Source: Candidatus Kapaibacterium sp. | GTDB lineage: Bacteria; Bacteroidota; Ignavibacteria; Kapaibacteriales; UBA4661 | Assembly: GCA_004292595.1 (NCBI GenBank) | Contig: RDXM01000083.1 | Span: 79,215-143,214, forward strand | DNA length: 64,000 nucleotides | Direction: 5' to 3' | Shown: positions 7,432 through 48,803 of the stretch, one piece after another | How the letters are laid out: each line of letters opens with the position of its first letter | How positions within the stretch are numbered: the stretch's first letter is position 1 | Translations under genes and position numbers: made by a program | Notes under the pieces: generated by a model | Database searches by the model: none | What the model was told of the DNA's origin: nothing | The model's input: the letters and a program-made list of their open reading frames with translations, nothing else

Positions 7432-7532
7432 AGTGGTATGTATGATAGTGAATGTGGTGGTGGTGATCGTGGTGGTTATCCGAAAAAATTGCAGTCTTTC
7501 CGTGCGCAACTCCTAAACATTGAGTAAGTACT

Positions 7533-9034: not shown

Positions 9035-10150
9035 TCAGATTTTGATAAAGATTTTTTTCTTGTACAATACCCACGCAACCGCAAAAATAAGCAGGTTGTA
9101 GGTGATAGCAAAGGCAAGAGACGAATTATATGTGCTAGCAAAAAATGGATAAAAAGCGACGTTGTAGAGGATGTTTTTCATTGCCAATTCTTTCCCGTCG
9201 GGTTGGGTCACAGTCCAGAACAGCAACACTTTCATAAGCAAAATCGAAAGAACGTAGGTAGCAAGGGCGTTCATGCCATAAATGGTGAAAAACTTCGCCC
9301 AGCGTTGCCAGCCTTGAACGTCCATCATCCAGTAAAATGCACCAAGAAAAAGCAAGCCCCATCCTGCCATGAACACCGAATATGAGCTTGTCCAGAGGCT
9401 TTTGTTAATCGGCATTCCCCAATCCCAGACCCCGCCCACAAGCAAACACGCAAAACCAGCAAAGAGCATCCATGCAGCTTTTTCGTCGCGTGATTTTTCG
9501 GTTTTGAGCAAATATCCCGTCAGCGAGCCGAAAAGTGCCGTTGCAATAGCGGGAAGAGTGCTTAAAACTCCTTCGGGATCCCACGTTTTGGATTGCACCC
9601 ACATATGCCCTGTAAGCAGCATCGAATCTACATATGCAGCAAGATTTTTCCCAGGATCCATGAAGCCCGCACCAAGATTTGGTACAGGCACAAGGTACAT
9701 AATTGCATTGTAGAAAACAAGCAGTCCTGCCGTCCAAAGTGCTTGCGCTCGCACAGAAAAGTTCAGCATAATCAGTGCCGAGAGCGCGTAGCAAATGGCA
9801 ATACGCTGAAGAACACCAGGAATCCTAACAGTCGCAAAATTGAATTTTGGGATTAAATTAAGTAGGAATCCTAATAAAAAAATAATTGCAGCACGTTTTG
9901 CTACCTGCATGAACAAATCGGTCTTGCTGTCGCCACGCGCTACGCGGTGCGCCATTGAGTACGTCATGGAAACACCACCGATATAGATAAAGAATGGAAA
10001 AATCCAATCGGTAGGAGTCCAACCATTCCAATGCGCATGAAGAAGCTGCGGGTATGCTTGCGTCCACGAGCCAGGATTATTGACTAAAATCATGCCCGCA
10101 ACGGTGAATCCGCGAAAGGCATCTAAGGAAGCCAAACGTTCTGTTTTCAT
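9035..10150 (-). CDS. DUF1624/DUF5009 (HGSNAT-like) polytopic membrane acyltransferase, NagX-like.
   Basis: The N-terminus RLASLDAFRGFTVAGMILVNNPGSW is typical of the heparan-alpha-glucosaminide N-acetyltransferase/NagX family. There are about 11 TM segments, and the gene is a neighbour of nagB. Confidence 0.6.
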   Translation of the reverse strand: MKTERLASLDAFRGFTVAGMILVNNPGSWTQAYPQLLHAHWNGWTPTDWIFPFFIYIGGVSMTYSMAHRVARGDSKTDLFMQVAKRAAIIFLLGFLLNLIPKFNFATVRIPGVLQRIAICYALSALIMLNFSVRAQALWTAGLLVFYNAIMYLVPVPNLGAGFMDPGKNLAAYVDSMLLTGHMWVQSKTWDPEGVLSTLPAIATALFGSLTGYLLKTEKSRDEKAAWMLFAGFACLLVGGVWDWGMPINKSLWTSSYSVFMAGWGLLFLGAFYWMMDVQGWQRWAKFFTIYGMNALATYVLSILLMKVLLFWTVTQPDGKELAMKNILYNVAFYPFFASTYNSSLAFAITYNLLIFAVAWVLYKKKIFIKI

Positions 10151-10260
10151 AGTGTTTCCGTTATGTTATGAGATTGTCTCCGCGTTGATGAAAAATTGCC
10201 TTGCCATGAAGAACAGGCAAACGTGCCTGTTGTATCGAAGCCAGTATCCTCTACGATGCG

Positions 10261-12783
10261 TTACTTCCCTGCCTTACTTAAACTAATATTCGCAATATCC
10301 CGCAACACAGCATCATGCACTGCCGGACGCACCGCACGAATCTTGATGTTTTCCGAGGTTGGATGCACACGATTGGTGAGAAAAACAACGCACAGTTCTT
10401 TCGTCGGGTCGCACCAAACGCTTGTTCCCGTGTAGCCAGTATGTCCGAAAGAAACAGCAGCAAAACCGTCTCCACACGAGCCTTTGCCCTCGCCTTTTGT
10501 GTCCCAGCCTATGGCTCGCGTATTCGATTTTTCCTGCCGTGTGGTAAAAAGTTTCACCGTTTCGGGTCGAATAAACGGCGTTTTCCCGCTTTCAGGGAAA
10601 TAGATCGCTTTCAAAAGCTGGCAAACATCGCCCACACTACCAAACAACCCCGCATGACCAGCCACCCCACCCAACAAGGCAGCACGGGGGTCATGGACAA
10701 GAGGGCGCGTAAATGCTTGCTTCCAGAGCTTATCTTCTTCGGTAGGCACACAGCGCGAAAGAATATCACCTTTCGGAATAAAACCTAACGACGGAATACC
10801 AATCGGGCGAGCAATGTTTTCTGCAAAATACACATCCAGCGTTTTTCCCGTGATGCGCCGAACAATCTCACCAAGGGTGATAAAACCTAAATCGCTGTAC
10901 ACCATAGAATCACCCGTTTTATAGACGAGCTTTTCGTTATACAGAGCTTGCATTGCGGCATCTGCCCCTTGCACCTGCTGGTCGTAGGGACGAAATGCTG
11001 CCAAACCAGAATTATGCAGCAAAAGGTTAGAAATCCTAACATTTTTTTTTCCATTCGCTGCAAATTCTGGAATATACTTCGCTACGCTATCCTCTAACTT
11101 GATTTTTCCTTCATCGTATAACTTCAAAAAACACGTTGTTGTGGCAAGAACTTTTGTTAAGGATGCCATATCGTACACGGATTCTGTTGTTGTTTTTGCT
11201 GCGGTATGTGCGTAGGTCATTGTTCCGAATGCTTCTTGCGCTACAATTTTTCCTTTCCAAATCACGCCCAAACACGCCGAAGGAAAGGCAGAATCATAGA
11301 TGGAGCGCAGAATAACTTTTCGTGCGCTTTCAAAATCAAGGTCTTGCTGCACAGCAGTATTGATGTCGTTCTGCACACTGTTTTTATCGCTTGTGTTGTC
11401 TAGTGCGCCTCGTTTTTTCGCTTCATCGGCTTGTTTTTGCAAAAATTCTTTTGTGTAAATCAAGTATTTTTGTCGCTTTTTCTCAAACTCACGCACTTCG
11501 GCTTGTAAAGATTTTTCAATATCTTCGGGCGTTTTTCCTGCTTTTATCATCGCAATAACTTTGCGCGAACCCAAACTGCGTCCTGCGCGGTCGAGTTCTT
11601 TACTGCGAATCGAATCGGGCAGCATTGTGTATAATTCCTGAGCCACCGTTAGTGTTGTGAACAACGGCTTGATAACAGCGCGATTCGTTATTTTCAAGGA
11701 GAAACCATAACACTGTTTCCCCGCTAGTTTTGAGCTTTCGGGATTGAATACCATTGCGGAACATTCTAGTCCAGGCAATTTTTTTGCATCAATACGCCGA
11801 CCAAATTGCAACCCATTCGCAAAGTTCATACCAGGAATACTTACGCCATATGTTGTAAAGGGCGAATCGGTACCGCGCCCAACGCTCCACGTTATATCTT
11901 CCAGCGAACCCAACAAATGATAACCAATCACTGCATCCATTGAGCGAATGTTCGGACTAGGATTGCGCCAAGGAAAAGCAGGCTCTTGCTCGTCATAGAA
12001 TTTATTCGCCTGATAGCCTTGCATCGTAATCACCGTAAGTTTTGCATTGATGCCAAATTCTGTATTGTAGAATTGCGCAAGTTCGCCAATGGTCATACCA
12101 TGTGCAATCGGAATAGGATAATAACTGGCAAATCCGCCTTGAAACTCTTTTTCCAAAATTGGACCATATACGCCAAGCGGTGCTGCCATATTTGGGCGGT
12201 CGAGCACAAAAAAGGGTATTCCTGCTTGAGCGGCGGCTTTCATACAATACGCCATCGTCGTTGCATATGTGTAATATCGTACTCCGATTTCTTGAATATC
12301 GAACACTAAAGCATCCACGCCTTGCAATTCTTCTGGCGACGGCTCTTTTTTCTTTTCCTGATACAAGGAATAAATCGGCAATCCCGTTGCAGAGTCCGTT
12401 TCGTTTTTGTTCAGCAATTCATCTTTTGTGCCACGAATGCCATGCTCTGGCGCGAAGAGCTTTGTTACCAAGCCCTGTTTGTGGAAAATATCAACGGCAT
12501 GGTCGCCCGAGCGTGTAACAGCAGAATGATTGACAATCAAACCAATCTTTTTCCCGCGAAGTGGCGCAAAATCTTGGCTTTGCAATACTTCCAGCCCTAC
12601 CTTGAAAGGAAGAAGTGTGGCATTTTTGGGAGGATTCTGTGCGCACACACTCAATGCCGTGGCAGTGATTATCACCAATGCAAACAGATATGCGGCTTGA
12701 TAACGAAAAGAAGTATTCATAATACATTCAAAAAAAATAGAGGAAGTTCCAAAAAGAATTTCGTGCCAAACCGCACACAACAA
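10261..12783 (-). CDS. Fusion protein: an N-terminal DUF1343/NamZ-like (exo-beta-N-acetylmuramidase family) domain plus a C-terminal beta-lactamase-fold serine hydrolase.
   Basis: 840 aa with a signal peptide. The N-terminal half is DUF1343-like. The C-terminal half carries an SxxK motif (DMASLTKVLATT) and a later YSDLG, typical of class C/PBP4-type serine hydrolases. Confidence 0.7.
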   Translation of the reverse strand: MLCAVWHEILFGTSSIFFECIMNTSFRYQAAYLFALVIITATALSVCAQNPPKNATLLPFKVGLEVLQSQDFAPLRGKKIGLIVNHSAVTRSGDHAVDIFHKQGLVTKLFAPEHGIRGTKDELLNKNETDSATGLPIYSLYQEKKKEPSPEELQGVDALVFDIQEIGVRYYTYATTMAYCMKAAAQAGIPFFVLDRPNMAAPLGVYGPILEKEFQGGFASYYPIPIAHGMTIGELAQFYNTEFGINAKLTVITMQGYQANKFYDEQEPAFPWRNPSPNIRSMDAVIGYHLLGSLEDITWSVGRGTDSPFTTYGVSIPGMNFANGLQFGRRIDAKKLPGLECSAMVFNPESSKLAGKQCYGFSLKITNRAVIKPLFTTLTVAQELYTMLPDSIRSKELDRAGRSLGSRKVIAMIKAGKTPEDIEKSLQAEVREFEKKRQKYLIYTKEFLQKQADEAKKRGALDNTSDKNSVQNDINTAVQQDLDFESARKVILRSIYDSAFPSACLGVIWKGKIVAQEAFGTMTYAHTAAKTTTESVYDMASLTKVLATTTCFLKLYDEGKIKLEDSVAKYIPEFAANGKKNVRISNLLLHNSGLAAFRPYDQQVQGADAAMQALYNEKLVYKTGDSMVYSDLGFITLGEIVRRITGKTLDVYFAENIARPIGIPSLGFIPKGDILSRCVPTEEDKLWKQAFTRPLVHDPRAALLGGVAGHAGLFGSVGDVCQLLKAIYFPESGKTPFIRPETVKLFTTRQEKSNTRAIGWDTKGEGKGSCGDGFAAVSFGHTGYTGTSVWCDPTKELCVVFLTNRVHPTSENIKIRAVRPAVHDAVLRDIANISLSKAGK

Positions 12784-13125: not shown

Positions 13126-13521
13126 TTAGGAAATCATACCCAGACCTTGCAACGTGCTAATGACTTTTTCTCGGTCAATCGGTTTAATCAAGTACGCCTC
13201 GCATTGATGCTTGAATGCTGCTTTTACATTGGCGAAGTCGCCCAGAGCGGTTGTCATAACAACCTTTGCTCCAGAAAGCGAGAAAACGCCATGTTGTTGC
13301 TCTAATTCACGAATATTTTTTAGCACATCCTGTCCCGTCATTTCGGGAACCATAATATCTAAGAAAACAACATCAAATTTATTTGGTGTTTGTAATGCAG
13401 CCTGAAATTTTTCTAGTGCCTCACGCCCATTTTCCGCCGTAACAACCTCACCGTAAGGCGCGAGAATTTCCGTCATGACACTGCGGCTTACGAACTCATC
13501 TTCCATTACGAGCATTTTCAT
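13126..13521 (-). CDS. Single-domain response regulator (CheY-like receiver).
   Basis: The pattern MKMLVMEDE...DVVFLDIMVPEMTG...IKP contains the D-D-K receiver residues. It is a paralog of the REC domain of the Hpt-REC protein at 16350..17657. Confidence 0.85.
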   Translation of the reverse strand: MKMLVMEDEFVSRSVMTEILAPYGEVVTAENGREALEKFQAALQTPNKFDVVFLDIMVPEMTGQDVLKNIRELEQQHGVFSLSGAKVVMTTALGDFANVKAAFKHQCEAYLIKPIDREKVISTLQGLGMIS

Positions 13522-13646: not shown

Positions 13647-16148
13647 TCATGATAAAAACTGCTTCCACGCACCAAAACGAAAGAAAGAATCTAACTGAGA
13701 AATTTCTTCTTGCAGCATACCAAATAACGATGGTGCTTCATGCAGCATACCATTTTTACCAATTTTCTCCAACTGAGCGCATAAATCCAAACATCGTTCT
13801 GCACCAAAATTCCCGACCGCCGATTTGAGTTTGTGGGCGCAGGCGTGCAAATTCACTGCATTATTTTCTTGCACAGCCAATTCAATCGCCGCCAAATCCA
13901 CAGAGTAATTCTGTAAGAAATACGTGATGAGTTTTTCAACAATGTCTTTTTTGCCATTGACCGCCTGCAAAAGGCGAGAAATGTCTGCTGGAGGCGTACC
14001 AGTCCAGATGGGCTGCATCTGTTTTTCATTATCTATTGTACTTCTACCATTTGCATCAAATCCGTTCTGTGCTTGCAGAGTTGCTTCATCGGATGTAGCA
14101 TTTTTCGCTTGCAACAGCCGCCAGATTGCATCGTATAATTTAGCAAAATCCAAAGGCTTTGTGACAACATCATCCATTCCTGCGCGGCGGCACATATCGG
14201 CATCTTGCGGAGTTGCATGGGCAGTAATACCAATAATGGGCAAATGCCGACGTGTGATTTTTTCATGCGCCCGAATAGCGGCGGTTGCTGTTAAGCCATC
14301 CATTTCTGGCATTTGGACATCCATCAAAATAATATCAACATCGAAGTTGGTGCGTTCTAATTCATCCAATGCTTCTTGACCATTGCCCACCATCAGGAGT
14401 TCCCAGCCATTGATACCGAGCGTTTCGCGCAATACAGCTTGATTTATCGGACTATCCTCTGCAACCAAAACGCGGAGCTGTCTGCTACTCGGAATTGCCT
14501 TAGGTGCATCTCCCGATGATGTGCGGACGAATGTTGCATTTTGCGCTTCTTCCTGAAGCTGCGTAATCGGCAAACGTACGGTAAAACCGAAGGTGGAACC
14601 GCGCCCTGCCTCGCTTTTGCACCACACGCCACCGCCCATCATTTCTGCAAGTTGTTTCGCAATGGCAAGCCCTAAGCCAGTTCCGCCGTATTTTCGCGTA
14701 AAGGAAGGGTCGATTTGACTAAAACTTTTGAACAATTTGTCCATTTTATCCTGCGCAATACCAATCCCAGAGTCTTGCACGACGCACTCGACAAGTGCAG
14801 AATTATCTTTTGCTTCGAGCAATCGAGCCGAAACCCGCACCGTGCCTTTGTCGGTGAATTTCATTGCATTGGCAATAAAATTATTCAAAATTTGCTTAAA
14901 ACGAATAGCATCGCCAACTAAGCGAGCCGGAATCGCCTCATCAACATTCATTTGTAGCTCTAACCCTTTATTCTGAGCTTGTGTGCGGAAAATCTCACAC
15001 ACATCAGCAATAAGCGTTTTAATATCAATCGGAATATTTTCAAATTCTAGTTTCTGCGCTTCAATTTTGGAAATATCCAAAATATCATTGATAATGTACA
15101 GCAGCGAATCTGCCGAAACCCGCACCATACGCAAGTATTCATGTTGCTTTGTCGTTAGATTATCCCCACTGACAAGCAGACTACTCATGCCAATAATCCC
15201 ATTGAGCGGTGTGCGTAGTTCGTGGCTCATATTTGCCAAGAACGTGCTTTTTGCGTCATTGGCAGCTTCAGCAATTTCTTTTGCCCGCACAATTTCTACT
15301 GTCCGCTCCGCAACGCGACGTTCCAGTTCTTCATTAATGCTCTTCATTGTTTCTTCTGCAGTTTTGCGCTCGGTAATATCTATACTTGCAAATACCGCCG
15401 CTTCGCCGTGATGATATTTTCGCCCAATTACAAAAAAGGTTTTGAGTCCGAGTGGCGTTTGTGTCTCAAGCTCAAACTCTGTTGTATCATTAGGGCTTTC
15501 AAAAAATTGTTGAATCAATTCCTTAAATCTCATTGTTCCGAACTGCTGGATAAACCCAACTTCTTTCCCCGCATACTCACTTGCTGGAACCCCCATGACG
15601 CTTTCAATGTGGTTGTTCACGCCAAGATATTTCAAATCTCTGCTAATCCACGAAATAGTGCCAGGAACAGAATTCAACACCGCCTCAAGCTGCTCTTTTG
15701 TTTCTTGCACTACTTTTCGCTGCTCGGCAAGCTGCTTCTCTACCAGCAACGTATTGACGGCGCGTTCTATCGCAACATACAGTTTTTCTTGCTTTACAGG
15801 CTTAATGATGTATTGGTCAATACCAATTTCAATCGCATTTAAGAGAAAATCTGTGCGGTCATATGCAGTGGTCAGAATAATTGGAATGCGGCTATTGTGC
15901 ATACGAATACGACGCGACATCTCCATGCCGTCCATTATCGGCATCGCAACATCAGCAACAATCACATCTGGCTGATATTTTTCAAACATCGCTAAACCTT
16001 CCTGTCCATCTTGTGCCAAGACAACTTTTTCGACGCGCTTTTCGAGCAGCATCTTTGTTAAAAGACGAATAGCGGGGTCGTCCTCCACATACAGAATGAC
16101 GACGGGCAGTTTGTCGAGGGATTGCGTTTGCTGGGTTACTTGGCTCAT
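13647..16148 (-). CDS. Hybrid sensor histidine kinase: REC - PAS - HisKA - HATPase - REC - Hpt.
   Basis: The H-box [14 protein letters not shown], the G-boxes DSGIGI and [11 protein letters not shown], two receiver domains (VVILYVEDD and LRVLVAEDS) and a C-terminal Hpt ([18 protein letters not shown]). Confidence 0.9.
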
Positions 16149-16349
16149 AAAGAATCGGAATGATGAGTCGAAAGGTCGGAATGATGAGTCAGAATGACGT
16201 TAGAAAATATCGTCAAAAACCATGAAAAATATAAAAAGCATGATACGACAACACTTTACGGCAAGGAAGACGGTGCAACAACAAGTACGAACAGACATCG
16301 TAAATTAAACTCTCTTGTACGCTCCAAAGCCGAACAAAGCTCTGGCTGG

Positions 16350-17657
16350 CTATTCTTCCAATAAATGGAGTTTTCGTAATTGATTGAGAACTTTTGCCCG
16401 CGAAATTGGCTTCGTAATATACGCATCGCATTGCAAACGAAATGCCTTGAAGATTTGGTCCATGCTATCAAGTGCAGTAGTCATCACAATTTTTGAGCGT
16501 TGTTGAATCGGGAGGTGCTTTTTGTCCTCCATCTCTCGAATGCCCTTCAAGGCTTGTGTTCCGTCCATCATCGGCATCATAATATCCAAACAGATGAGGT
16601 CGTATCCACCGCCATCATTGAGCGTTTGCTCATATGCCAATAGGGCTTCGCGCCCGTCGGCAGCAAGGTCGCACACTCCAAAGGGTGATAAAATTTCGTG
16701 AATAACGGTGCGACTGACAAAATCATCCTCTGCAATCAGAATATTCATCTTTTTGATAGAACGAACCTCTTTTTGCGCAGGCGCAGCCTGCACGGAGGCG
16801 GTTTGCACGGGCGCGTTCGCGGAAGAACTTCCAGAAACACGACCTGCTGAGGCTTGCGAGGCATTTCCTTGAACAACTGGTGCTTCTGGACTTGAAGAAG
16901 ACGCGCTGCTCGCTTTGCTGAGTACTTTCTCGACATCCACAGGCTTCACTGGGTCGAAAATATGCATTTCTAATTCATCCAGTTCAAAGGTTGTGGCTAT
17001 CACAAGACGCATCACCGATTCGGCTTCTGTGCGTGGTAAGTTCTTGTATTCGGGATAGGTGGCGATATGGATTCCCACATCCCGAATATCGTCGTAGATA
17101 GGCAAGGTTTCATAGCTATCTTGCGAAAGATGCTGCGGATTGATAATTTTTTCTATCTGGTACACATTGAACTTTTCCCGCACCATTCCCGCCAGTAACC
17201 CGCGCTGGCGCTCACTCAGTGGAAATTGTAGGTCAATAAAATTCTTTCCCTTTGCACTCCTTCCGCCCCTGCGTTGCTGGGCTTCCTCGTGAATCTGCTC
17301 TAATTCACGTTGCAAGACAACAAGCTCCGCATGATGCTCTGTCGGAAGAAAAACATTGAACCGCATCGCATCTACCGCCATAAGGGATTTGTGAACAAGA
17401 AGTTGCGTCGGCTCGGCAAGTCCATTGCGCACTAAATCAAAGTTTGATTCTACTGCGTGAATAAGCTGCGACGAAGCATCGCGCTGGGCAAGCCCAAGTG
17501 TGCTTTTGAGGTTGTGTGCGATACGAAAGATTTGGTGAACACTCTCGGTCTTATCACTTTGTGTGTCCAGCATTTCCTCAAAGTTGAGAAGCAACTGCTC
17601 TAAACGTTCTATGAGGTCGATAATATCGCTCAGTTGGGATTCTTGGTCGTCCATCAT
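16350..17657 (-). CDS. Hpt domain - unknown linker (about 200 aa) - receiver domain protein.
   Basis: The N-terminal Hpt-like HQIFRIAHNLKSTLGLA matches FRxaHtlKG. The C-terminal REC is MNILIAEDDFVSRTV...ICLDIMMPMMDG. The middle region is Ala/Ser/Gln-rich. Confidence 0.7.
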   Translation of the reverse strand: MMDDQESQLSDIIDLIERLEQLLLNFEEMLDTQSDKTESVHQIFRIAHNLKSTLGLAQRDASSQLIHAVESNFDLVRNGLAEPTQLLVHKSLMAVDAMRFNVFLPTEHHAELVVLQRELEQIHEEAQQRRGGRSAKGKNFIDLQFPLSERQRGLLAGMVREKFNVYQIEKIINPQHLSQDSYETLPIYDDIRDVGIHIATYPEYKNLPRTEAESVMRLVIATTFELDELEMHIFDPVKPVDVEKVLSKASSASSSSPEAPVVQGNASQASAGRVSGSSSANAPVQTASVQAAPAQKEVRSIKKMNILIAEDDFVSRTVIHEILSPFGVCDLAADGREALLAYEQTLNDGGGYDLICLDIMMPMMDGTQALKGIREMEDKKHLPIQQRSKIVMTTALDSMDQIFKAFRLQCDAYITKPISRAKVLNQLRKLHLLEE

Positions 17658-17734
17658 GAGATTGCGTCCGAATGGTCTAAGATATGAAAAAATCGGGAAA
17701 ATGGTACATTCATTCCACTACTTGTTTGTATGAA

Positions 17735-18106
17735 CTATAACAAACCAACCGCTTTCAAGGCAGTTTTCATGCGGTCGCCAGAGAAAGGCTTTACTAAATA
17801 ATGGTTTGCACCAAGCTGTTGCAATTTTGCTTGCATTTCGGGGCTATCCAGCGTCGAAAGCATAACAACGGGGGTTTTTCCAGCAGTCGCGTGCTTGCGC
17901 ACTCGTTTCAAAAATTCCATTCCGTTCATGTTTGGCATTTCAATATCAGAAAAAATGACATCGAAGGTTTTGGAATCTAATACTTTTAAGCCTTGAATGC
18001 CATCCTCGGCTAAATCAACCTTAAAGCCAGACATTGCAAGAAAGGTGCGCGTTGCCGAGCGATGAATCTCGGTATCATCAACGACTAAAGCAGTCTTGAA
18101 AGCCAT
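17735..18106 (-). CDS. cheY: CheY-like single-domain response regulator.
   Basis: 123 aa with LVVDDTEIHR...DVIFSDIEMPNMNG...LVKPF. Confidence 0.85.
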   Translation of the reverse strand: MAFKTALVVDDTEIHRSATRTFLAMSGFKVDLAEDGIQGLKVLDSKTFDVIFSDIEMPNMNGMEFLKRVRKHATAGKTPVVMLSTLDSPEMQAKLQQLGANHYLVKPFSGDRMKTALKAVGLL

Positions 18107-18193
18107 CGGAATACTCCTTTAAAAAAGAAAGAAGAGTAAAAATGAAGAGTAATTGTTTGCAAAAGGAAGACCACTTCTGCGCATGAGAGAAGC

Positions 18194-19300
18194 CTACACA
18201 ATCCACGGTTTCTTTTCTGGCGACGAAATATGAACCGCTTTCGAGCCAACCTGAATAAAGACCGTTCTGCTGAACGATTGCCCCGTATCTTCAGAAGCGA
18301 TGGTGATGCCGAGTGCTTGAAGGAGTTGCTTGATAGCAGCAATATTTTTCTCGCCAATTTTGAAATAATTTCCAGCATCTGCGCCCGTTTGCGCACCACC
18401 AGCGAGCTTTGCCGTTAGCTGCGACATCGGCTTGCGGAAGCCCTTGGCTCGCATTTCGTTGATGAGAGCGGGAATGGCAGTATCGGCGAAATATCCAGGC
18501 AAACTCTTCGCTTTTTCGGGCGATGTTTGCGAGCTTGCCAAGGCAACGTGCGCCATACCAACGACATCCTGCGTCGGGCTAAACAAACACACCGCCACAC
18601 ACGAACCAAGCGCGAAGGTTTTCACAATTTTCCCATACTCATACGCCACGCCAAATTCTCCAACACCCAAAATCAGCTGCGGAATGCGCTCTTCGTAGTT
18701 TGGTATAGTTGCTTGCGAAGAAGTCTGCGTTGTACTTGGGCGCACAGGCGACGGAGCAAGACTTGATGAAGCAAGATTTGATGAGGCTTGCGGAGAAATT
18801 TGCGTGGGCAGTTTTGCGGGCAGTGCTGGTGGCGGCGAACCGCCTTGCGCACCAATCATACCGCGCTGACGCGCCGAGCGCACCTCGCTGCCGCTTACCC
18901 GATATGCTGCCCGAATTTTTACCACTAAACGCGCAAGTGTTTCTTGAAAACCTTGCGGATTCAAGGCAGAAGGTTTGGGAATAAAATCTACTGCACCCGC
19001 TTCTAATGCCTGTAAGGTAATACTTTTGTCGTTTTGCGCCCACGAACTGAGAACAATGATGGGCAGAGCATCACGCATCATCGCCGCTTTGATAAAATCC
19101 AAGCCGTTCATCACGGGCATTTCCATATCGGTTACGACGACATCCACAGCAAGTATTTGGAGCTTGTCCAAAGCATCCTGACCATGCACCGCCACGCCAA
19201 CAATTTCTAGCTCATGCTCTGGCGCACTCAAGGACTTCGTGAGCATATCTCGAACAAGTGGCGAATCATCCACTAATAAAACACGTATTTTTTCAGCCAT
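18194..19300 (-). CDS. cheD: Fusion of a CheB-type receiver domain to the CheD chemoreceptor glutamine deamidase.
   Basis: The N-terminal REC (MAEKIRVLLVDDSPLVRDML...) is about 60% identical to the REC of the adjacent CheB. The C-terminal half aligns with B. subtilis CheD (FALGSCVAVCLF..VGMAHVALASS; YFADTAIPALINEMRAKG; AKLAGGAQ; GITIASEDTGQSFSRTVFIQVGSKAVHIS). The start was chosen at the internal Met because the track start at 19429 overlaps cheB. Confidence 0.8.
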   Translation of the reverse strand: MAEKIRVLLVDDSPLVRDMLTKSLSAPEHELEIVGVAVHGQDALDKLQILAVDVVVTDMEMPVMNGLDFIKAAMMRDALPIIVLSSWAQNDKSITLQALEAGAVDFIPKPSALNPQGFQETLARLVVKIRAAYRVSGSEVRSARQRGMIGAQGGSPPPALPAKLPTQISPQASSNLASSSLAPSPVRPSTTQTSSQATIPNYEERIPQLILGVGEFGVAYEYGKIVKTFALGSCVAVCLFSPTQDVVGMAHVALASSQTSPEKAKSLPGYFADTAIPALINEMRAKGFRKPMSQLTAKLAGGAQTGADAGNYFKIGEKNIAAIKQLLQALGITIASEDTGQSFSRTVFIQVGSKAVHISSPEKKPWIV

Positions 19301-19361
19301 ATAAAACGATGGTCGTATATTCAAGTATTCTGGTTGTTCAGGCAGCACATTAGATAACAGA

Positions 19362-20501
19362 TTACACGCCAACTGCCTGCAAAATCGCCGCACCAATTTT
19401 GGGGAGCGGTAACACAGTTTGTACCGCACCGACTTCCTGCGCTACTTTGGGCATTCCAAAGACAACGGAGGTCGCTTCATCCTGCCCAATCGTTTTTGCA
19501 CCTGCATCGCGCATAGCTTTCAAGCCTTGTGCGCCGTCATTGCCCATACCAGTTAAAATCACACCACACGCATTCGCGCCAACGTATTCAGCAACGGACT
19601 TCATCATCACATCCACCGACGGACGATGCCCATTTACTTTATCTTCTTGCGACAACACAATTTCATATCGCCCACCAGAACGCACTACTTTCAAGTGCAT
19701 ATCGCCCGGAGCAACGAGAATACGCCCTGTTACAACGCGGTCGCCGTTGGCAGCTTCTTTTACCTCCATAGCACATTCTTCATTCAAGCGGTCAGCAAAG
19801 GTTTTCGTAAAACCTTGCGGCATATGCTGAACAACAACCACGCCAGGGGTCGTTGCGGGAAACTCACGCACCAAGCGGCGAATAGCCTCCGTACCGCCAG
19901 TGCTTGCACCAATGGCAATCACCTTGTCCGTGGATTCTGCCAGTGCTTTGGCTTTCAGTGGAGTAGTTGTTGCTCCGCCAAGACCAGCACCTGCGCCCGA
20001 AGAAGAAGCCGCTCCAGCACTTGCGCCCGTAATCGCTCCAGCACCTGCCCGCACGGAGTTGAACAGTTCTTCGCGTTTTGATTTCCAGTGCGATACATTT
20101 GCCGTCGAAGCAATTTTTACTTTTGTACGCAATTCCATCATCATCCCTTGCAAGCCCTGTGCCACATTGGAAGTCGGCTTGGCAACAAAATCCACCGCAC
20201 CTGCTTCCAATGCCTGCATGGTAATTTCCTTCCCGCGTTGCGTCAGCGAACTGACCATCACAACCGGAAGAGGAAATTGCGGCATTAAACGGCGCAAAAA
20301 CTCAACGCCATCCATACGTGGCATTTCGACATCCAGCGTGAGAACATCGGGACGCAATTCCACAATTTTATCCCGTGCAACAAACGGGTCTGGCGCAACG
20401 CCAACGACTTCGATATTTGGGTCTGCGCCCAAACCTTGCGAAAGAATATCCCGCACCAAAGCGGAATCATCAACGATAAGAACACGAATTTTTTTGCTCA
20501 T
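19362..20501 (-). CDS. cheB: Protein-glutamate methylesterase CheB (REC plus methylesterase).
   Basis: REC MSKKIRVLIVDDSALVRD and a methylesterase core AIGASTGGTEAI...VVVQHMPQGFT...GRILVAPGDMHL. Confidence 0.9.
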   Translation of the reverse strand: MSKKIRVLIVDDSALVRDILSQGLGADPNIEVVGVAPDPFVARDKIVELRPDVLTLDVEMPRMDGVEFLRRLMPQFPLPVVMVSSLTQRGKEITMQALEAGAVDFVAKPTSNVAQGLQGMMMELRTKVKIASTANVSHWKSKREELFNSVRAGAGAITGASAGAASSSGAGAGLGGATTTPLKAKALAESTDKVIAIGASTGGTEAIRRLVREFPATTPGVVVVQHMPQGFTKTFADRLNEECAMEVKEAANGDRVVTGRILVAPGDMHLKVVRSGGRYEIVLSQEDKVNGHRPSVDVMMKSVAEYVGANACGVILTGMGNDGAQGLKAMRDAGAKTIGQDEATSVVFGMPKVAQEVGAVQTVLPLPKIGAAILQAVGV

Positions 20502-20595
20502 TGCGCTTACAATCTAATAGAAGGTGAAGAATAGACAAGAATATACAAGATTATACGATAAATACAATAATGTGATGACCAAACGTTGAGCGTTT

Positions 20596-21453
20596 TTACG
20601 GCTTTTGGTACAATGCTGGACTAATATAACGAAAGGATGATGAATCACGTGAAATAGTCTCTGAATGCCCAATAAATAAGAAACCGCCCGGCTCAAGCGC
20701 GTTGTAGAAGCGTTCGACAAGTGCATCGCGGGTGGGTTTATCAAAATAAATCATGACATTTCGGCAAAAAATGGCGTGGAATGGGCGTTTGAAAGGAAAG
20801 TGCGTATTCATCAAATTAAATTTTCGATAGACAACATCTTTCTGCACCTGCGGTAAAATCTGGATTTCACCTGTGGGAAGCTGTTTGGTGTATTTACGTC
20901 TGTAATTATCGGGCAATAGCTCAATGCGTTCAAGCGGATAGACTCCTGCCTCGGCAACACCCAGCGCACGTTCGGAAATATCCGTCGCCAACACGCCTGC
21001 TTTCCACTTGGGATATTCTGCGCCAAAGTAATCCATAAGAAGCATTTGCAGCATATACGACTCTTCGCCCGAAGAGCAGCCAGCACACCAAATACGCAGG
21101 TCAAATTCACGCTTTGCGCTGAGTGTCGCCGAAATGCTCGGTAAAAACTGCCGCGTAAAAAACTCAAAGTGGTCTTTTTCGCGCCAGAAAAACGTATGAT
21201 TTGTGGTAATGTGATTGGCAAATTCAATCAGTGCTTCGGAATTGCCGCCAGCACGTGTCAAATACTCGTGATACTCATGGAAACTCGTCATTCCCATCTT
21301 CCGAAGCACTTTTTGTAAGCGCACCGTTACCATCGTCCGCTTTTCGGGAGGCAAGAAAATACCAAAACGGTCATACACAAGACGGCTCAAGCTGTCAAAT
21401 TCATCAACTGAAAGCTGAACCGAAACAATATCTTCAATCGCTGGAACCTGCAT
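20596..21453 (-). CDS. cheR: Chemotaxis protein methyltransferase CheR.
   Basis: The CheR N-terminal domain plus a SAM-dependent methyltransferase fold: TNHTFFWRE...RIWCAGCSSGEESYMLQM...FCRNVMIYFD. Confidence 0.9.
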   Translation of the reverse strand: MQVPAIEDIVSVQLSVDEFDSLSRLVYDRFGIFLPPEKRTMVTVRLQKVLRKMGMTSFHEYHEYLTRAGGNSEALIEFANHITTNHTFFWREKDHFEFFTRQFLPSISATLSAKREFDLRIWCAGCSSGEESYMLQMLLMDYFGAEYPKWKAGVLATDISERALGVAEAGVYPLERIELLPDNYRRKYTKQLPTGEIQILPQVQKDVVYRKFNLMNTHFPFKRPFHAIFCRNVMIYFDKPTRDALVERFYNALEPGGFLFIGHSETISRDSSSFRYISPALYQKP

Positions 21454-21473
21454 ATATCCTCATCATTTTGTGG

Positions 21474-23630
21474 TTAATAGCGACCAAACTCGCTGTCATC
21501 AAGGCGAATGGTGTCGTGTGCGGCGAGCATTTTTTGCGACGGTGCCGCAAGGTGCGCATCTTCTTTTTCTAACGATGCTTTTCTTGCATTGCCACTAGCA
21601 ACGCCGCTTTGCTGATACGCTTGCCCGCTATAATTCTTGTGCTTTGAAGGCATTTCATGTTTCAGTTTTGGGGAAGAACCATGATGCAATGACCCCGCTC
21701 CAAACGAGGAGTCTTGGCGCAACTGAAAGCGCGAGCTGACAACATTATTCAGTTCAACCGCTTGTTTAGAAAGCTCTTCGGCGGCGGCGGCGCACTCTTC
21801 GGCGGCGGCGGTGTTTTGCTGCGTTACGCGGTCAATCTGCGCAAGCCCAATATTAACTTGCGAAATACCTTGCGCTTGCTCATTCGAGGCAGAAGCAATT
21901 TCACCAACAATATCACGGACTTTCACACTAGCAAGCATGATTTCTTCGAGTGCCTGCGCGGTACGAGCAGCAATTTGTGTGCCTCTATCTGCGGTTTCGA
22001 CCGCAGATTCAATCAAATCTGCTGTTTCTTTCGCCGCTTTCGCGCTGCGTGCTGCCAAGCTCCGCACCTCTTCTGCGACCACCGCAAAACCCTTTCCATG
22101 CCGCCCTGCACGCGCCGCTTCCACAGCCGCATTCAGCGCAAGCAAATTCGTTTGGAAAGCAATTTCGTCAATGACTTTGATAATTTTTGAAATATTTCTG
22201 CTGGATTCGTTAATTGCCGACATTGCACTGCCAAGCTGCTCCATTTCTGCATTTCCACGTTGAGCAATGCTATTTGCATCCAAAGCAACAATATTTGCCT
22301 GATTTGCATTCTCAGCATTGATGCGGGTTTGCGAGGCAAGTTCGTGCATGGAGCCAGTAATTTCTTCCAATGCTGCTGCCTGCTCCGACGCACCATGCGA
22401 GAGCGACGTGCTTGCGTCGGCTACTTGCGACGCGCCACGCGTTACTTGCCCAATAATTTCCATTACATTTTGCAGAACATCAGCAATCGCGCTAATCGTG
22501 GAGTTGATATTTGACTTCAATGCCGCGTGGTCGCCTTTGTAATTGCCTTGCATTGGCTGGCGCAAATCACCCTCAGCCATATGCTTCAGCACCGATACCG
22601 CTTCTTGAATGGGATAAATCGTGGCATCCAACGTAGAATTTACGCCCGCAATAATGTCGCGGTACGCACCGTGAAAATGCTTTTCGTTGCCGCGTGTTTT
22701 CAGGTCGCCGCTTGTGGCAGCCTTTGTCAGCCCGTTGGTTTCTTCGGCAAGGTCTTGAATTGTCTGAACAATTTGCTTCTTCATCCTAGCGAGGTCGCCC
22801 ATTTCATCGAGGTTTGAAATGCTAAAGGAAATATTTTTCAAGTCGCCCACAGCAACCTTCGCATTCACTTCTTGGAGAAGTTTGATGGGCTTGACAAGGA
22901 ATCCGGCAATCAGGAAAATAGCAAGAATAATGCCCGCCGATGACAACCCAACAATCGAAGCAATCACCAAGGATTTTTCCGCCGTTGTTGCCTGTACCTC
23001 GTTCAAGCTCATGCTTACTTCAAATGCTCCATGCACTTCGCCTACTTTCCAGTTTTCCATTTTCGCGCCCGTTATGTCCTTGCCCTCAGAGTTTCCCCAC
23101 AATGCTGCTGATTCTGCTGGGTCGCCATGACATTGCATACATTCTTGCGTCAATTTTATCGGGCGGAAGTAGTGCAGTTGATTGGTGGCAGCATCTATTT
23201 CTTGATATTCGGTCAGCGTACCATCTTCAAGTTTTCTCAGAACAGCAAGCTCATTTGCATTTGGCTCATTGTCGGGATTGCGCGGTTGAATTTTCGGAAC
23301 TTTTATCGTAAAGCCTAGTTCCCGTGCCTTTTTCCGCGCTACTTCCATTGCCGAAAAAATCGGAATAGTATGCAAAATCTGCTCGGTGGTAAAGTTCGAT
23401 GAGCGCACATCTTTGAATACGCCTTGTTTTATCTGGTCGGCGGCATATTCGCGGGCGGACTCTGCCGCATAGACCAGTGTTCGCGCCTTATTCACGAGCG
23501 CATCAGTCGCGGCTTCGCGGTAAATTTTTGAAAAATACCAGTATGAAACAGCACCGCTCGCAAGAGAAATAATGACAATCGGCAAAATAAGTTTCCAGCG
23601 AATAGGCAAAGAAAGCCACCAGTTTTTCAT
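21474..23630 (-). CDS. Methyl-accepting chemotaxis protein with a periplasmic CxxCH (c-type heme) sensor domain (DUF3365/Tll0287-like).
   Basis: TM1, then a periplasmic domain ending [47 protein letters not shown], then TM2, HAMP repeats and the MA core [35 protein letters not shown]. The likely start is the internal Met [10 protein letters not shown]. Confidence 0.8.
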
Positions 23631-23794
23631 GGTATAGTCTCCAAAAATATAGTACAATCGTGTAATACAGTCGTATTGTACAATCAAACACGAAAAAAAT
23701 TTATTGATTTATTGGCACAAAAAGCTCTCTGTTCTTGCTTTCACACCCATTGCGTACCTTGCCCAGAATCTTTCTTGCTCTGAATTATTGCTCT

Positions 23795-23933
23795 CCTCTG
23801 TACACGACAAAACCTCTGAAAGGTGCATAAAATCAGGCTTCAGTGGCTTGAGGCTTCTTGCCTGTGTTTGTCGTCTGAAACCCGCACCAGAATGTCTGTG
23901 CCACTATGAAAGGAGTTTTGTCGTATACAGAGG
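23795..23933. repeat. MITE-like element of about 139 bp with 19 bp terminal inverted repeats (cctctgtacacgacaaaac / gttttgtcgtatacagagg). Copy A.
   Basis: The core taaaatcaggcttcagtggcttgaggcttcttgcctgtgtttgtcgtctgaaacccgca recurs, inverted, at about 31442..31566. The TIRs were read directly. Confidence 0.55.
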
Positions 23934-23954
23934 TTGCTCTCGTTATTGCTCTCA

Positions 23955-26477
23955 TTATTGCTCCAGCATTTCCAATACTTCCAGCGCACCCTCATTCAAC
24001 GATAAAACAGCATCAACATCAGTAATCAAGCCAATTTCACCGTTGCTGAGTATCATGCAGCCTGTTACGCCTTTCACGCTGCCCACATAGTCCGAAAGCC
24101 CCTTGACAACGATTTGCTGCTGCCCGATAATTTCATCCACAAACAAGCACGCACGTCGCTCGCGGGCTTCGACCACCACCAAAATTCCTTTCTGCAAATT
24201 TGTTGTTTGTGGTACAATGTCATAGACTTCATGCAAACGAATGACCGAAAACAAATCCTCTCTCACGCGCACCACTTCTTGCCCATCCATCGTAATCGTG
24301 ATAGCTTCGGGCTGCGGGCGAAACGATTCTCGAATAGAAAGTATCGGCAGGGCGTACACTGCTTGACCAACACGAATCAACATTCCTTCCATAATCGCTA
24401 AGGTCAAGGGAATACGCAGCGTGAAGCGTGTTCCCAAGCCCTCTTTGCTGTCCACCGTAATGCTGCCTTGCAACTTTTCGATATTCCGCTTCACAACGTC
24501 CATTCCCACGCCACGTCCCGAAATATCCGAGATTTTATCAGCAGTAGAAAAGCCCGGCTCGAAAATAATTTGAAAAACTTCGCGGTCGGTTACTTTGTCG
24601 GGAGCGGTTTTGATAATTCCTTTAGAAACAGCTTTATCCAAAATTTTCTGCCGATTCAATCCGCCACCGTCATCTTCAATAATAATCAAAATTTCATTTC
24701 CTTCGTACCGAGCTTGTAGTTTCACAACGCCTGTTTCGCTCTTTCCTGCTGCAATGCGCCGTTCACGGCTTTCTACGCCGTGGTCTATCGCATTGCGAAG
24801 AATGTGCATGAGCGGGTCGGAGATTTCTTCAATAACGTTTTTATCCATTTCCGTTTCCGCGCCAGAAATCACCAAGCTAATTTTCTTGTCGAAGCGCATG
24901 GACACGTCGCGCACGAGGCGTTTCATTTTATTGAACAAGCCTTCAACAGGTGTCATACGAATTGACATCGTTACTTCCTGCAATTCGCGGGTAATTTTAT
25001 TCAGCATTCCTGCTGCCCGCGTGAAGCTCTGCAATTCCAACGCAACCACTTCAGGATTGCTTGTTACCATTGTTTCAATGGTAATCAACTCGCCAACCAA
25101 ATCAAAAAGTTTATCCAATTTTTCGGTATCCACACGAATATCTTTGCGCTGGGCAAGCCCAGATGCCGCTTGCGGAGCGGCGGCTTGCGTGGCAGACGAT
25201 TGCATCGCCACTGGCGAAGGAGCTTGCTCAATGTTTGCCGACACTGCTTCTGGCAATACGTCCGAAGAAGCGAATTTTGGTATGTCGTTATGCAGCGCAG
25301 CAGCAGCCTGTATGCTGTGTGCAGGAATATCCTGTATATGTACGGATGCGGGTTGTGCAGAAGATACCTGCGCTGGCGAAGCCGAAAGGGTCGCAGTTTG
25401 GACATTCTTTGCTTTAGCAGCCTCCTTAGGAGCATCCTGCTGCTGCGAACTCACGCTCGGTGCATTGGTCATAAGTGCTTGCACGGCAGTTTTGATGATG
25501 TCGATATTGGTCAAAATCATCGAAATCAAGCCTGGATAAACCTCAATCGCCTTTGAGCGCACGGCATCAAGGATATTTTCCAAATCCATACTCATATCTT
25601 CAATTTCTGCAAAGCCCATAAAACCTGAGTTTCCCTTAATGCTATGCACTGCACCAAAGACATCGGCGACAATGCCCATATTGTGGGGGTCTTGCTCCAA
25701 AATCAAGCACCCATCTTCGACACGAGCAATCAGGTCGAGTGCTTCGGCAACATAGCGTGCAAGCATTTCACCTGTGGCGGCGGCGAGTCCTGCTCTATCG
25801 GGGAAGTCCGACTCAGAAGCTACTGGTGCAGCAACTGGAGGTGGTGGTGGTGTTTCTTCGCTGCTCAGAAGCGCGAGTTGGTCGTCATTAAAGAAAAAAT
25901 CGGTATCGGAGAAGATAGATTGAGATTGAAATTGCGTAGCAGCGTGTGTATGAGCTTCTGGATTGGCGGAAGAAGAAAACGACGGAGCAAACATTGGCTC
26001 TTCGCTCGGCACAAAAACTTCTTGAGATGGTGCGTGAGATGCTGGTGGCTTGGAAGCACTCTCAAGCCTTCCTCCGCCAGACTTCAGCAGTGTAATTGCT
26101 TGCTGCAAGCGTCCGATAAGATTTTTGACAGAGACTTCCTGTCCAGTATCTTTCAGCGAATCACTCACGGTATTGAGCAGGGTGCGAATAACGTCAAATG
26201 CCTCGTAAATAATACCGATGATGTCTTCATTGGGAATCCCAGTCATATTGCGCAGAATGTCCAGCATTGTTTCGGACTCATGCGTTACGGTATTGATGGT
26301 GTTAAAATTCAAAAAGCCCGACAGTCCCTTAATCGTGTGGAAAACGCGAAAAATGGAATGAATACTCTCTCGATTCGAGCCATCGGCAATATCCTGAATA
26401 CGACCTTCCTGCTCATCAAGTGAGTCTAATGATTCGGCAACAAATGCGCGGACTATCTCCAGCGTTTCACGATCCAT
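23955..26477 (-). CDS. cheA: Chemotaxis histidine kinase CheA with two tandem Hpt (P1) domains.
   Basis: P1 domains HSIFRVFHTIKGLSGFL and VFGAVHSIKGNSGFMGF, a dimerisation domain, an HATPase domain (IIIEDDGGGL...GRGVGMDVV) and a C-terminal CheW-like P5. Confidence 0.9.
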   Translation of the reverse strand: MDRETLEIVRAFVAESLDSLDEQEGRIQDIADGSNRESIHSIFRVFHTIKGLSGFLNFNTINTVTHESETMLDILRNMTGIPNEDIIGIIYEAFDVIRTLLNTVSDSLKDTGQEVSVKNLIGRLQQAITLLKSGGGRLESASKPPASHAPSQEVFVPSEEPMFAPSFSSSANPEAHTHAATQFQSQSIFSDTDFFFNDDQLALLSSEETPPPPPVAAPVASESDFPDRAGLAAATGEMLARYVAEALDLIARVEDGCLILEQDPHNMGIVADVFGAVHSIKGNSGFMGFAEIEDMSMDLENILDAVRSKAIEVYPGLISMILTNIDIIKTAVQALMTNAPSVSSQQQDAPKEAAKAKNVQTATLSASPAQVSSAQPASVHIQDIPAHSIQAAAALHNDIPKFASSDVLPEAVSANIEQAPSPVAMQSSATQAAAPQAASGLAQRKDIRVDTEKLDKLFDLVGELITIETMVTSNPEVVALELQSFTRAAGMLNKITRELQEVTMSIRMTPVEGLFNKMKRLVRDVSMRFDKKISLVISGAETEMDKNVIEEISDPLMHILRNAIDHGVESRERRIAAGKSETGVVKLQARYEGNEILIIIEDDGGGLNRQKILDKAVSKGIIKTAPDKVTDREVFQIIFEPGFSTADKISDISGRGVGMDVVKRNIEKLQGSITVDSKEGLGTRFTLRIPLTLAIMEGMLIRVGQAVYALPILSIRESFRPQPEAITITMDGQEVVRVREDLFSVIRLHEVYDIVPQTTNLQKGILVVVEARERRACLFVDEIIGQQQIVVKGLSDYVGSVKGVTGCMILSNGEIGLITDVDAVLSLNEGALEVLEMLEQ

Positions 26478-47984: not shown

Positions 47985-48686
47985 TCACAAAGCATCAGGA
48001 TTCATGCCGAGTTCACGGAGTTTTGCCGCAAGTGTAGCGGTATATGTTTTGGTAGCGTCCAGTTCAGCACGGGTATCATCCAATTCCGCATTAATTTCTG
48101 CATAGCTTAGAAATGGCTCTCCATCAGGCTTTCTGAGGACAAGCTCACCTGACGACATATCAAACATAATCCCCAAGCGCGGACTTTTCCAATCGTTCAT
48201 ATCAGGAATTTCTTCCAGTGCCTCATCGTTTTCAGTGAATCGAATAAGACCGCTTAATTGCTTGTGTTCAAGGTCGTAAACGTAATATTCCTGCACACCG
48301 TATCGCTCAAAAAATGCGGCTTTTCGCATCATTTCTGACTGCGTATTGGAATCAGACAAAAACTCAAACACCACCTGCGGCGGCGTATTTTCTTCGTTCC
48401 ACTGGCGATACGATTTTCGCGCTCCCTTGGGACGACCCAATGCCACCATCACATCAGGCGCGACCGCAATCTTCGTCTTGCCTTTGACGGGATACCAAAA
48501 TAAATCCCCTGCAACAAATACATCATCACGGTTAGCAAAGACAGATTCTATGCCGTGTTTCGTTGTGGTGATGCGCTCAAAGTGTTCAGAACTGTTTGCC
48601 ATGGGTTGTCCATCGGAATCAGGGTAAAAAATATCGCCTTCCCACGACGAGAGATTTGGCAAAGCCTGTAAAGTTGCGGTTTCCAT
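47985..48686 (-). CDS. Uma2 family endonuclease. Copy 2, an inverted paralog of 42927..43727 that lacks the tandem repeat.
   Basis: About 75% amino-acid identity to copy 1 along the whole length (YPDSDGQPMANS...DLFWYPVKG...). The start is taken at METATLQ. Confidence 0.8.
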   Translation of the reverse strand: METATLQALPNLSSWEGDIFYPDSDGQPMANSSEHFERITTTKHGIESVFANRDDVFVAGDLFWYPVKGKTKIAVAPDVMVALGRPKGARKSYRQWNEENTPPQVVFEFLSDSNTQSEMMRKAAFFERYGVQEYYVYDLEHKQLSGLIRFTENDEALEEIPDMNDWKSPRLGIMFDMSSGELVLRKPDGEPFLSYAEINAELDDTRAELDATKTYTATLAAKLRELGMNPDAL

Positions 48687-48803
48687 AGCATTTTTCCTGC
48701 AAAAGTGGGCGAATTGTCTCCACCGAAATATAGAGTTTTTTGGGGCAAAAGTCAAGAGCGATAATGCTCTACATTCAACAAACAAGCCGCATAGAGAGCT
48801 TTA

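Follow-up and report, generated by a model that had tools for sequence, protein, structure and literature searches.

A CheB-type receiver domain fused to a CheD deamidase domain in the chemotaxis operon of a Candidatus Kapaibacterium genome

The DNA analyzed here, referred to as the window, is a stretch of 64,000 nucleotides from contig RDXM01000083.1 (assembly GCA_004292595.1, positions 79,215 to 143,214 of the forward strand) of Candidatus Kapaibacterium sp., a metagenome-assembled genome (MAG) of the Bacteroidota lineage. On its minus strand lies a chemotaxis operon of nine co-directional genes with intergenic gaps of 20-324 bp, the fifth of which encodes a single polypeptide where a CheB-type receiver domain (REC) is joined through a linker to a domain of the chemoreceptor glutamine deamidase CheD (Table 1). 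As described in a first-pass annotation made from the sequence alone, this gene stands directly downstream of cheB in the che operon. The gap to cheB measures 61 bp, and a CheY-like gene follows 87 bp downstream. The open reading frame (ORF) starts with the ATG at 19300, giving a protein that begins with MAEKIRVLLVDDS, and stops at 18194-18196; the product has 368 amino acids (aa), which corrects the earlier estimate of about 369. The exact protein is present in the NCBI database as 'MAG: response regulator [Candidatus Kapaibacterium sp.]' (Bacteroidota). REC-CheD proteins are automatically annotated as 'response regulator' or 'chemotaxis protein CheD', both domains being already labelled. The proposed fusion of a CheB-family receiver and CheD in one polypeptide is confirmed by Pfam, NCBIfam, PDB, and fold matches, and in the Pfam searches suggested with the first-pass annotation both Response_reg (PF00072) and CheD (PF03975) were matched above their curated cut-offs.

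The identification of the C-terminal half as CheD is borne out by several comparisons. The Pfam CheD profile matches residues 254-359 over positions 2-107 of 108 (E-value 4e-25, 88.5 bits for a cut-off of 25). The best of the NCBIfam CheD equivalog models extends the match to residues 209-356 with an E-value of 1.6e-30, its score of 106.6 lying below a cut-off of 240 that applies to the whole protein. Searching the PDB, the top match is CheD of Thermotoga maritima from the CheC-CheD complex (2f9z_C; residues 209-351, E-value 5.8e-22). Comparison of the predicted structure with the same chain in Foldseek gives a template modeling (TM) score of 0.87, normalized to the target, and a root mean square deviation of 2.2 Å over 162 columns with 32% identity (E-value 3.3e-16). 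In the alignment to 2f9z_C, residues T228, C234, and H251 line up with Thr21, Cys27, and His44 of T. maritima CheD, which Chao et al. in 2006 reportedly identified as catalytic. C234 and H251 are invariant in every class of fused proteins, and T228 is found in 34 of the 36 members of the long type, to which the window protein belongs.

Regarding the dependence of CheD on CheC, a Met-Phe pair (M101/F102 in Bacillus subtilis) is conserved solely in the CheDs of species that possess CheC (Yuan et al. 2012; PMC3513319). The corresponding residues of the window CheD are Thr305-Gly306, with the Thr being invariant in the clade, and none of the 46 ORFs scanned within the 64-kb window matched the CheC/CheX family. 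Because the Met-Phe pair is replaced and the window encodes no CheC or CheX, this CheD appears to be of a CheC-independent type, outside the CheC-dependent subclass of Bacillus and Thermotoga. It also departs from the canonical CheD layout, a single domain of about 160 aa, in being part of a protein of 368 aa with an N-terminal receiver. Judged by profile hidden Markov models (HMM), fold, catalytic residues, and gene context, the domain is thus a CheD, but a non-canonical one, both two-domain and CheC-independent. The earlier statement that regulation of CheD normally goes through CheC or phosphorylated CheY (CheY-P) holds for CheC-containing systems; it does not carry over to others, including the window CheD without its Met-Phe pair.

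The N-terminal domain matches Response_reg over residues 7-112 (E-value 7e-22, 78 bits for a cut-off of 30). When the first 165 residues are compared with NCBIfam, the best model is that of the CheB subfamily, PRK00742 (positions 2-143 of 357, E-value 1.6e-37), in a match that spans both the receiver and the linker helix of CheB, and a second CheB model is matched with an E-value of 3.9e-28. CheB receivers are also the closest in the PDB, by sequence (3t8y, 1a2o, and 6ymz) as well as by structure (3t8y and 6ymz, with a TM-score of 0.87 for 3t8y_A). The predicted fold comprises five β-strands and five helices, and helix 115-136, like its counterpart in CheB, extends into that of the linker. On the strength of these profile and structure matches, the receiver is a member of the CheB subfamily, and not of the CheY or other subfamilies. 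The protein as a whole is not a CheB, since Pfam finds no CheB_methylest domain (PF01339) in it, though its layout and presumed logic are CheB-like.

The residues expected of a working receiver are conserved. The predicted phospho-acceptor D58, like S85 and K109, shows no variation either among the 36 fusion proteins of alignment A1 or in alignment A2, and D11/D12 are invariant or nearly so in the fusion proteins of both; the aromatic switch residue F106 is read from the window protein alone, the statement on conservation covering the other switch residues. Beyond these, there are nine residues that never change within the long-type REC-CheD clade and are rare in CheB, and eight of them (W87, N90, D91, K92, I94, P115, T121, and L122) map to the α4-β5-α5 surface. 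Receivers contact their output domains by this face, and the concentration of clade-specific residues there lends indirect support to a coupling between the receiver and its output.

The receiver is not, as had been suggested, a close paralog of the receiver of the neighboring CheB with about 60% identity. The two share 45% identity over 145 aa (BLASTP E-value 1e-33; 45.7% in our comparison set), CheB receivers from unrelated organisms are 44-47% identical to it, and the CheY-like protein of the operon 26.5%. In neighbor-joining trees (about 140 columns, 200 bootstraps), the receiver grouped with the CheBs of the operon in 0 of 200 replicates. A recent duplication of the adjacent cheB receiver was rejected on both grounds. 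The receivers of the long-type proteins form a clade of their own with 88% bootstrap support, and the clade of all REC-CheD receivers only reaches 33%; with neighbor-joining on so few columns, the deep branching of these trees is weakly resolved.

The AlphaFold2 model of the protein, obtained with 38 homologs, consists of two confident domains, residues 1-136 and 205-368, with a predicted local distance difference test (pLDDT) score mostly above 90 (about 80-95 in REC). Residues 148-199 of the linker have pLDDT values below 50 and are predicted to be disordered, and the predicted TM-score (pTM) of the whole protein is 0.47. Among homologs, the linker forms a gap-rich and unconserved part of the alignment, varying in length and sequence with the reading frame kept. 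An internal start at Met148, which would yield a standalone CheD, was rejected, as this Met is unconserved in the alignment.

The first-pass annotation had raised the possibility of an artificial join between two genes. These could be a truncated cheB duplicate and cheD, run together through a sequencing frameshift or in a chimeric assembly, but the chance of this is practically negligible. The ORF runs without a break, a stretch of 7107 bp that includes the whole gene (15194-22300) recurs identically in an independent Logan assembly (L085), and the same REC-linker-CheD layout is found in 38 protein clusters (at 90% identity) that are 34-82% identical to the query and whose variable linkers preserve the frame. 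These clusters were drawn from NCBI, JGI, ENA, and Logan assemblies, and come from many unrelated samples and assemblers. No cultured organism with this exact REC-CheD form was seen among them, the form being known from MAGs alone.

The surroundings of the gene are conserved as well. The order CheA-(CheW)-MCP-CheR-CheB-[REC-CheD]-CheY-like-Hpt/REC-hybrid kinase-REC is found in three related loci: L001/L002, which carries a 49% identical ortholog and has cheW after cheA, the Kapaibacterium SKYG85 locus L005 (45% identical), and the L085 assembly. The long-type fusion gene always lies between cheB and the cheY-like gene, beside a gene for a chemoreceptor (MCP) with Glu-Gln sites. In the MCP of the window, such pairs occur at two consensus modification sites, GASEQAAA and ASNEQAQG, and they are kept in three orthologs, those of L001 and L005 included. 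The Gln of Glu-Gln receptor modification sites is the target of receptor deamidases.

Table 1. Positions of the REC-CheD gene, its domains and key residues, the other genes of the che operon, and the related short REC-CheD genes. Coordinates are those of the window unless a locus is named.
Feature	Coordinates	Strand	Basis and remarks
REC-CheD fusion gene	18194..19300	minus	one continuous ORF, 368 aa + stop; Pfam Response_reg + CheD
CheB-type receiver (REC), residues 1-136	18893..19300	minus	Pfam, NCBIfam, PDB, AlphaFold2, Foldseek
Inter-domain linker, residues 137-205, Ser/Pro/Ala/Gln-rich	18686..18892	minus	alignment + AlphaFold2
CheD domain (chemoreceptor glutamine deamidase / glutamate methylesterase fold), residues 206-368	18197..18685	minus	HMM, PDB, Foldseek
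Asp58 codon, predicted phospho-acceptor	19127..19129	minus	codon verified
Switch residues D11/D12; S85; F106; K109	19265-19270; 19046-19048; 18983-18985; 18974-18976	minus	codons verified
CheD catalytic residues T228; C234; H251	18617-18619; 18599-18601; 18548-18550	minus	alignment to 2f9z_C
cheA	23955..26477	minus	two Hpt matches, dimerisation domain, HATPase, CheW-like; presumed phosphodonor
Chemoreceptor MCP, 718 aa from ATG at 23630	21474..23630	minus	Tll0287-like periplasmic, HAMP, MCP signalling; presumed substrate
cheR methyltransferase	20596..21453	minus	Pfam
cheB, REC + CheB_methylest, 379 aa	19362..20501	minus	Pfam; NCBIfam above CheB subfamily cut-off
Single-domain CheY-like receiver	17735..18106	minus	Pfam, NCBIfam
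Hpt...REC protein, 435 aa, conserved operon member	16350..17657	minus	Pfam
Hybrid histidine kinase REC-HisKA-HATPase-REC-Hpt, conserved operon member	13647..16148	minus	Pfam
Single-domain receiver, end of conserved operon	13126..13521	minus	Pfam
Short REC-CheD genes	L003:9998-10957; L006-L013 near 10001-10950 each		

Some further features of the operon partners were noted. The best NCBIfam match of the MCP is Vibrio Aer2, and its periplasmic Tll0287-like domain contains a CMQCH motif (CxxCH) at 23127-23141, which suggests a sensor with covalently bound c-type haem. The MCP ends with EFGRY (21477-21491), and a tail of the form [D/E]FG[R/K]Y is conserved in the orthologs; it resembles the C-terminal pentapeptide that serves as a tether for CheR and CheB. 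In CheA, the two Hpt (P1) matches are separate and N-terminal to the dimerisation domain, and the L002 region contains two cheA genes in tandem.

Genomes of Kapabacteria and Ignavibacteria encode a shorter kind of REC-CheD protein, 314-328 aa in length and 41-44% identical (alignment A2), which forms a sister group to the long type. Their CheD domains cluster with those of the long type, and the two groups probably descend from the same fusion. No che gene was found in the DNA flanking nine of the short genes (L003 and L006-L013), which extends up to 10 kb either way. Several of these loci have in common a succession of genes for Peptidase_S13, an ABC permease, REC-CheD, and then a protein of only 114-125 aa. 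Moreover, the six short proteins examined all carry Ile at the position of the catalytic Thr. The short proteins may have a different, non-receptor target. Extended to the window protein, the same features would suggest a CheD domain acting on a substrate other than a chemoreceptor, such as another signalling protein. We regard this as very improbable for the window protein, which is of the long type; genes of this type always lie between cheB and a cheY-like gene, beside that of an MCP with Glu-Gln sites.

For the architectures of CheD homologs, 1.84 billion cluster representatives (50% identity) were scanned exhaustively with HMMER and the best 150 matches were classified. They include 66 single-domain CheDs, 26 proteins of CheD-REC-CheB architecture, 7 of CheD-REC, and 4 of REC-CheD; Pfam confirmed the architectures in ten examples. 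The joining of CheD to a CheB-type receiver is not unique to REC-CheD, as CheD-REC and CheD-REC-CheB are present in an independent lineage. CheD-REC proteins (28 sequences of about 300-320 aa) come from MAGs of Nitrospinota, Thermodesulfobacteriota, and others. CheD-REC-CheB_methylest proteins measure about 510-545 aa and number 27 sequences, namely the 26 clusters among the best 150 and P0042; examples are P0257, P0259, P0281, P0042, and P0280, with 22 others. In one locus (L086, 8001-9545), such a gene follows cheR in the order CheA-CheW-MCP-CheR-[CheD-REC-CheB]. Another locus (L087) reads CheW-[CheD-REC]-CheA-CheW-MCP-CheR-CheB, and a split form, cheD followed by a gene for a single-domain CheB-like receiver, occurs in L045, L061, and L062.

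The CheD domains of CheD-REC and CheD-REC-CheB proteins are only about 30% identical to that of the window and form a separate clade in which both architectures are intermixed, and their receivers form a separate clade too (97% bootstrap). Since the domain order is reversed, the identity is low, and the clades of both domains are distinct, the CheD-first fusions appear to have an independent origin, probably in the joining of adjacent cheD and cheB genes. By these comparisons, CheD and a CheB-type receiver have become physically linked on at least two occasions and in opposite orders, which is good comparative evidence for a functional coupling. Among the best 150 matches there are also 22 REC-REC-CheB-like proteins (P0246-P0254 and others) and 8 CheR-REC-REC-CheB-like proteins of 573-1065 aa (P0262, P0271, P0275, P0298, and others), seen by phmmer with the window domains only.

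The closest standalone relatives of the window CheD, among the best 120 matches of its CheD domain alone, are proteins of 160-165 aa with about 47-51% identity from Desulfuromonadales, Caldithrix/Calditrichia, Spirochaetes, and Chitinivibrio. In that search, 119 of the 120 matches are single-domain (154-170 aa) and one, of 237 aa, is a piece of a fusion protein; that full-length fusions are missing is put down to the word index of the search and given no weight as evidence. In these relatives, cheD directly follows cheB within the order cheA-cheW-(mcp)-cheR-cheB-cheD...REC...REC, as in the window, and cultured examples are Malonomonas rubra DSM 5091 (L016) and Pelovirga terrestris (L030). No CheC was noted in these nearest standalone-CheD clusters, although it was not specifically searched for there. 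Because the closest CheDs hold the same place after cheB, in otherwise similar clusters of other phyla, the fusion is read as this cheD extended at its N-terminus by a CheB-family receiver and linker.

An intact receiver and an intact CheD domain within a che operon are most economically read as phosphorylation control. The protein would then be a response regulator with a CheD output domain, built of a CheB-type receiver, a flexible linker, and a receptor-modifying hydrolase. Phosphorylated CheA (CheA~P) would phosphorylate Asp58, which would alter the α4-β5-α5 face of the receiver and turn on or redirect the action of CheD on the MCP of the operon, that is, Gln deamidation at the Glu-Gln sites and possibly demethylation. 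This would provide a second kinase-dependent feedback loop beside phosphorylated CheB (CheB-P), taking over the role played by CheC and CheY-P in Bacillus and Thermotoga. Our estimate of the probability that CheA-dependent phosphorylation of the receiver controls the action of CheD on the chemoreceptor is roughly 60%.

Several observations weigh against this reading. An occlusion of the active site in the style of CheB is not supported by the structural model, which places the two domains in no confident mutual arrangement (pTM 0.47) and leaves about 50 linker residues disordered. In other systems, CheB-P already both deamidates and demethylates receptors, and the gain from a second regulated enzyme is unclear. 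No cheW was found in the window: the cheA-mcp gap (23631-23954, 324 bp), where L001/L002 encodes a CheW of 171 aa, holds no cheW, and tblastn with the L001 CheW gave no match; L005 is without cheW, like the window. Finally, what counts in B. subtilis CheD is its binding to receptors and CheC more than its enzymatic activity (PMC3513319), and the regulated step could for this reason be binding rather than catalysis. In such a scheme, CheD would chiefly bind receptors and thereby raise the activity of CheA, the phosphorylated receiver would move CheD on or off the receptor, replacing CheC and CheY-P, and deamidation would be a one-off maturation step. A linker of such length and flexibility, with no docking of the domains predicted, would be in keeping with a tethered competitor or with a release mechanism, and the missing CheC and replaced CheC-binding Met-Phe pair also fit. 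However, across proteins of 34-82% identity neither the catalytic Cys nor the catalytic His ever varies and the Thr hardly does, which argues that selection acts on catalysis. We therefore hold regulation of binding to be possible but distinctly the less probable scheme, which moreover coincides with phosphorylation control of catalysis in all but the step that is regulated.

A receiver of the CheB family could also serve another end, as a tether docking CheD at CheA or at the receptor array, or as a sink draining phosphoryl groups, with CheD being constitutively active. The CheB receiver of E. coli binds CheA in competition with CheY, the several other receivers of the operon suggest a partitioning of phosphate, and AlphaFold2 predicts no interface between the two domains, all of which would be compatible with a tether or sink. 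On the other hand, the clade-specific invariant residues lie on the output face and not on the kinase-facing α1 and β-α loops, and the same pairing of domains has evolved at least twice, in opposite orders. Given these output-face residues and the repeated evolution, coupled regulation is the simpler explanation, and a mere tether or sink seems unlikely, somewhat more so than a control of receptor binding.

With considerable reserve, the different fusions can be joined in a wider picture of phosphorylation control, which we offer as a speculation more apt to be wrong than right. CheD would be phospho-controlled wherever CheC is absent, with the fusions and the adjacent cheD and receiver genes acting as 'Rosetta stones' for the standalone CheDs encoded next to cheB, which would be controlled in trans by a CheB-type receiver. 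CheB-P and phosphorylated REC-CheD, enzymes of different chemistry that would each be phosphorylated separately, would form two loops acting on distinct receptor sites, and the orphan short REC-CheD proteins would be non-receptor deamidases under two-component control.

Full-text literature searches, which do not prove absence, retrieved no description of REC-CheD, CheD-REC, or CheD-CheB fusions. The claim that the arrangement is undescribed stands in so far as no paper was found; as a theme, it is fairly common in the databases, and among the best 150 matches CheD-REC-CheB (26 clusters) outnumbers REC-CheD (4 clusters). CheD occurs in many bacteria, yet how it is regulated is understood solely where CheC is present, in Bacillus and Thermotoga, and many systems have CheD without CheC. 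For these, a conserved and independently re-invented covalent link between CheD and a receiver suggests a testable answer, namely that CheA-dependent phosphorylation would control CheD directly. REC-CheD would add a second enzymatic output domain to the response regulators of chemotaxis, and with one polypeptide, one receptor, and one kinase it offers a simple in vitro system for asking whether catalysis or receptor binding is regulated. The advance is incremental, as the parts and the logic are known and the domain rearrangement is a modest one within a well-known signalling toolkit.

The window contains other genes of note outside the operon. Two further chemoreceptors are encoded at 5563-7509 and 38597-40993, both on the minus strand; one of them has a 4HB_MCP/TarH sensor with HAMP domains, the other N-terminal TPR repeats. 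A gene at 54467-58171 (minus) encodes a protein of 1234 aa in which a complete 2-oxoglutarate dehydrogenase E1 is united with a domain of the 2-oxoacid dehydrogenase acyltransferase (E2 catalytic) type; this E2-E1 layout is typical of the actinobacterial OdhA/Kgd, and the window is from a Bacteroidota-lineage MAG. The product of 10261-12783 (minus, 840 aa) is a fusion of NamZ, an exo-beta-N-acetylmuramidase with its N- and C-terminal domains, to a domain of the serine beta-lactamase fold, and that of 3545-5473 (minus, 642 aa) joins a domain of the glucosamine-6-phosphate isomerase/6-phosphogluconolactonase type to PIG-L (GlcNAc de-N-acetylase). Three genes for putative endonucleases of the Uma2 family occur within 12 kb (42927-43727, plus; 47985-48785 and 53782-54363, minus).

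Among known systems, CheB (Salmonella typhimurium 1A2O, T. maritima 3T8Y) is close in plan: it has a receiver of the same subfamily, a linker helix followed by a receptor-modifying hydrolase, and a place in the che operon by cheR, and the presumed logic, a CheA-dependent phosphorylation controlling a covalent modification of receptors, would be shared. In contrast to CheB, catalysis in the fusion would rely on the Cys-His-Thr residues of CheD, in another fold than the Ser-His-Asp of CheB_methylest, the linker is disordered over a length of about 60 residues with no predicted packing of the receiver on the catalytic domain, and a normal CheB is encoded in addition. The CheC-partnered CheDs of B. 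subtilis and T. maritima (2F9Z) have the same fold and catalytic residues, and both they and, presumably, the fusion are tied to the phosphorylation state of a receiver. They are single domains of about 160 aa controlled indirectly through CheC, a mimic of the receptor substrate, whereas the fusion has two domains and Thr-Gly in place of Met-Phe.

The standalone CheDs encoded after cheB, as in M. rubra and P. terrestris, are the closest in sequence and share the gene order, but are without a receiver. The CheDs of the F7/Che2 systems of Pseudomonas and Vibrio belong, like the fusion, to operons without CheC; they too have no receiver, and F7 cheD precedes cheB, unlike in the window. We know of no described regulation for either of these two groups. 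CheD of P. aeruginosa is reported to augment receptor methylation (summarized in PMC10107281). The CheD-REC and CheD-REC-CheB_methylest proteins of Nitrospinota, Thermodesulfobacteriota, Bacteriovoracaceae, and other MAGs likewise unite CheD with a CheB-type receiver in che clusters, sometimes beside a separate CheB, but there CheD is N-terminal, whereas it is C-terminal in the window fusion. CheV (CheW-REC), an auxiliary chemotaxis protein whose receiver is phosphorylated by CheA, is similarly made responsive to phosphorylation by being joined to that receiver; its partner domain is a scaffold, while that of the fusion described here is an enzyme.

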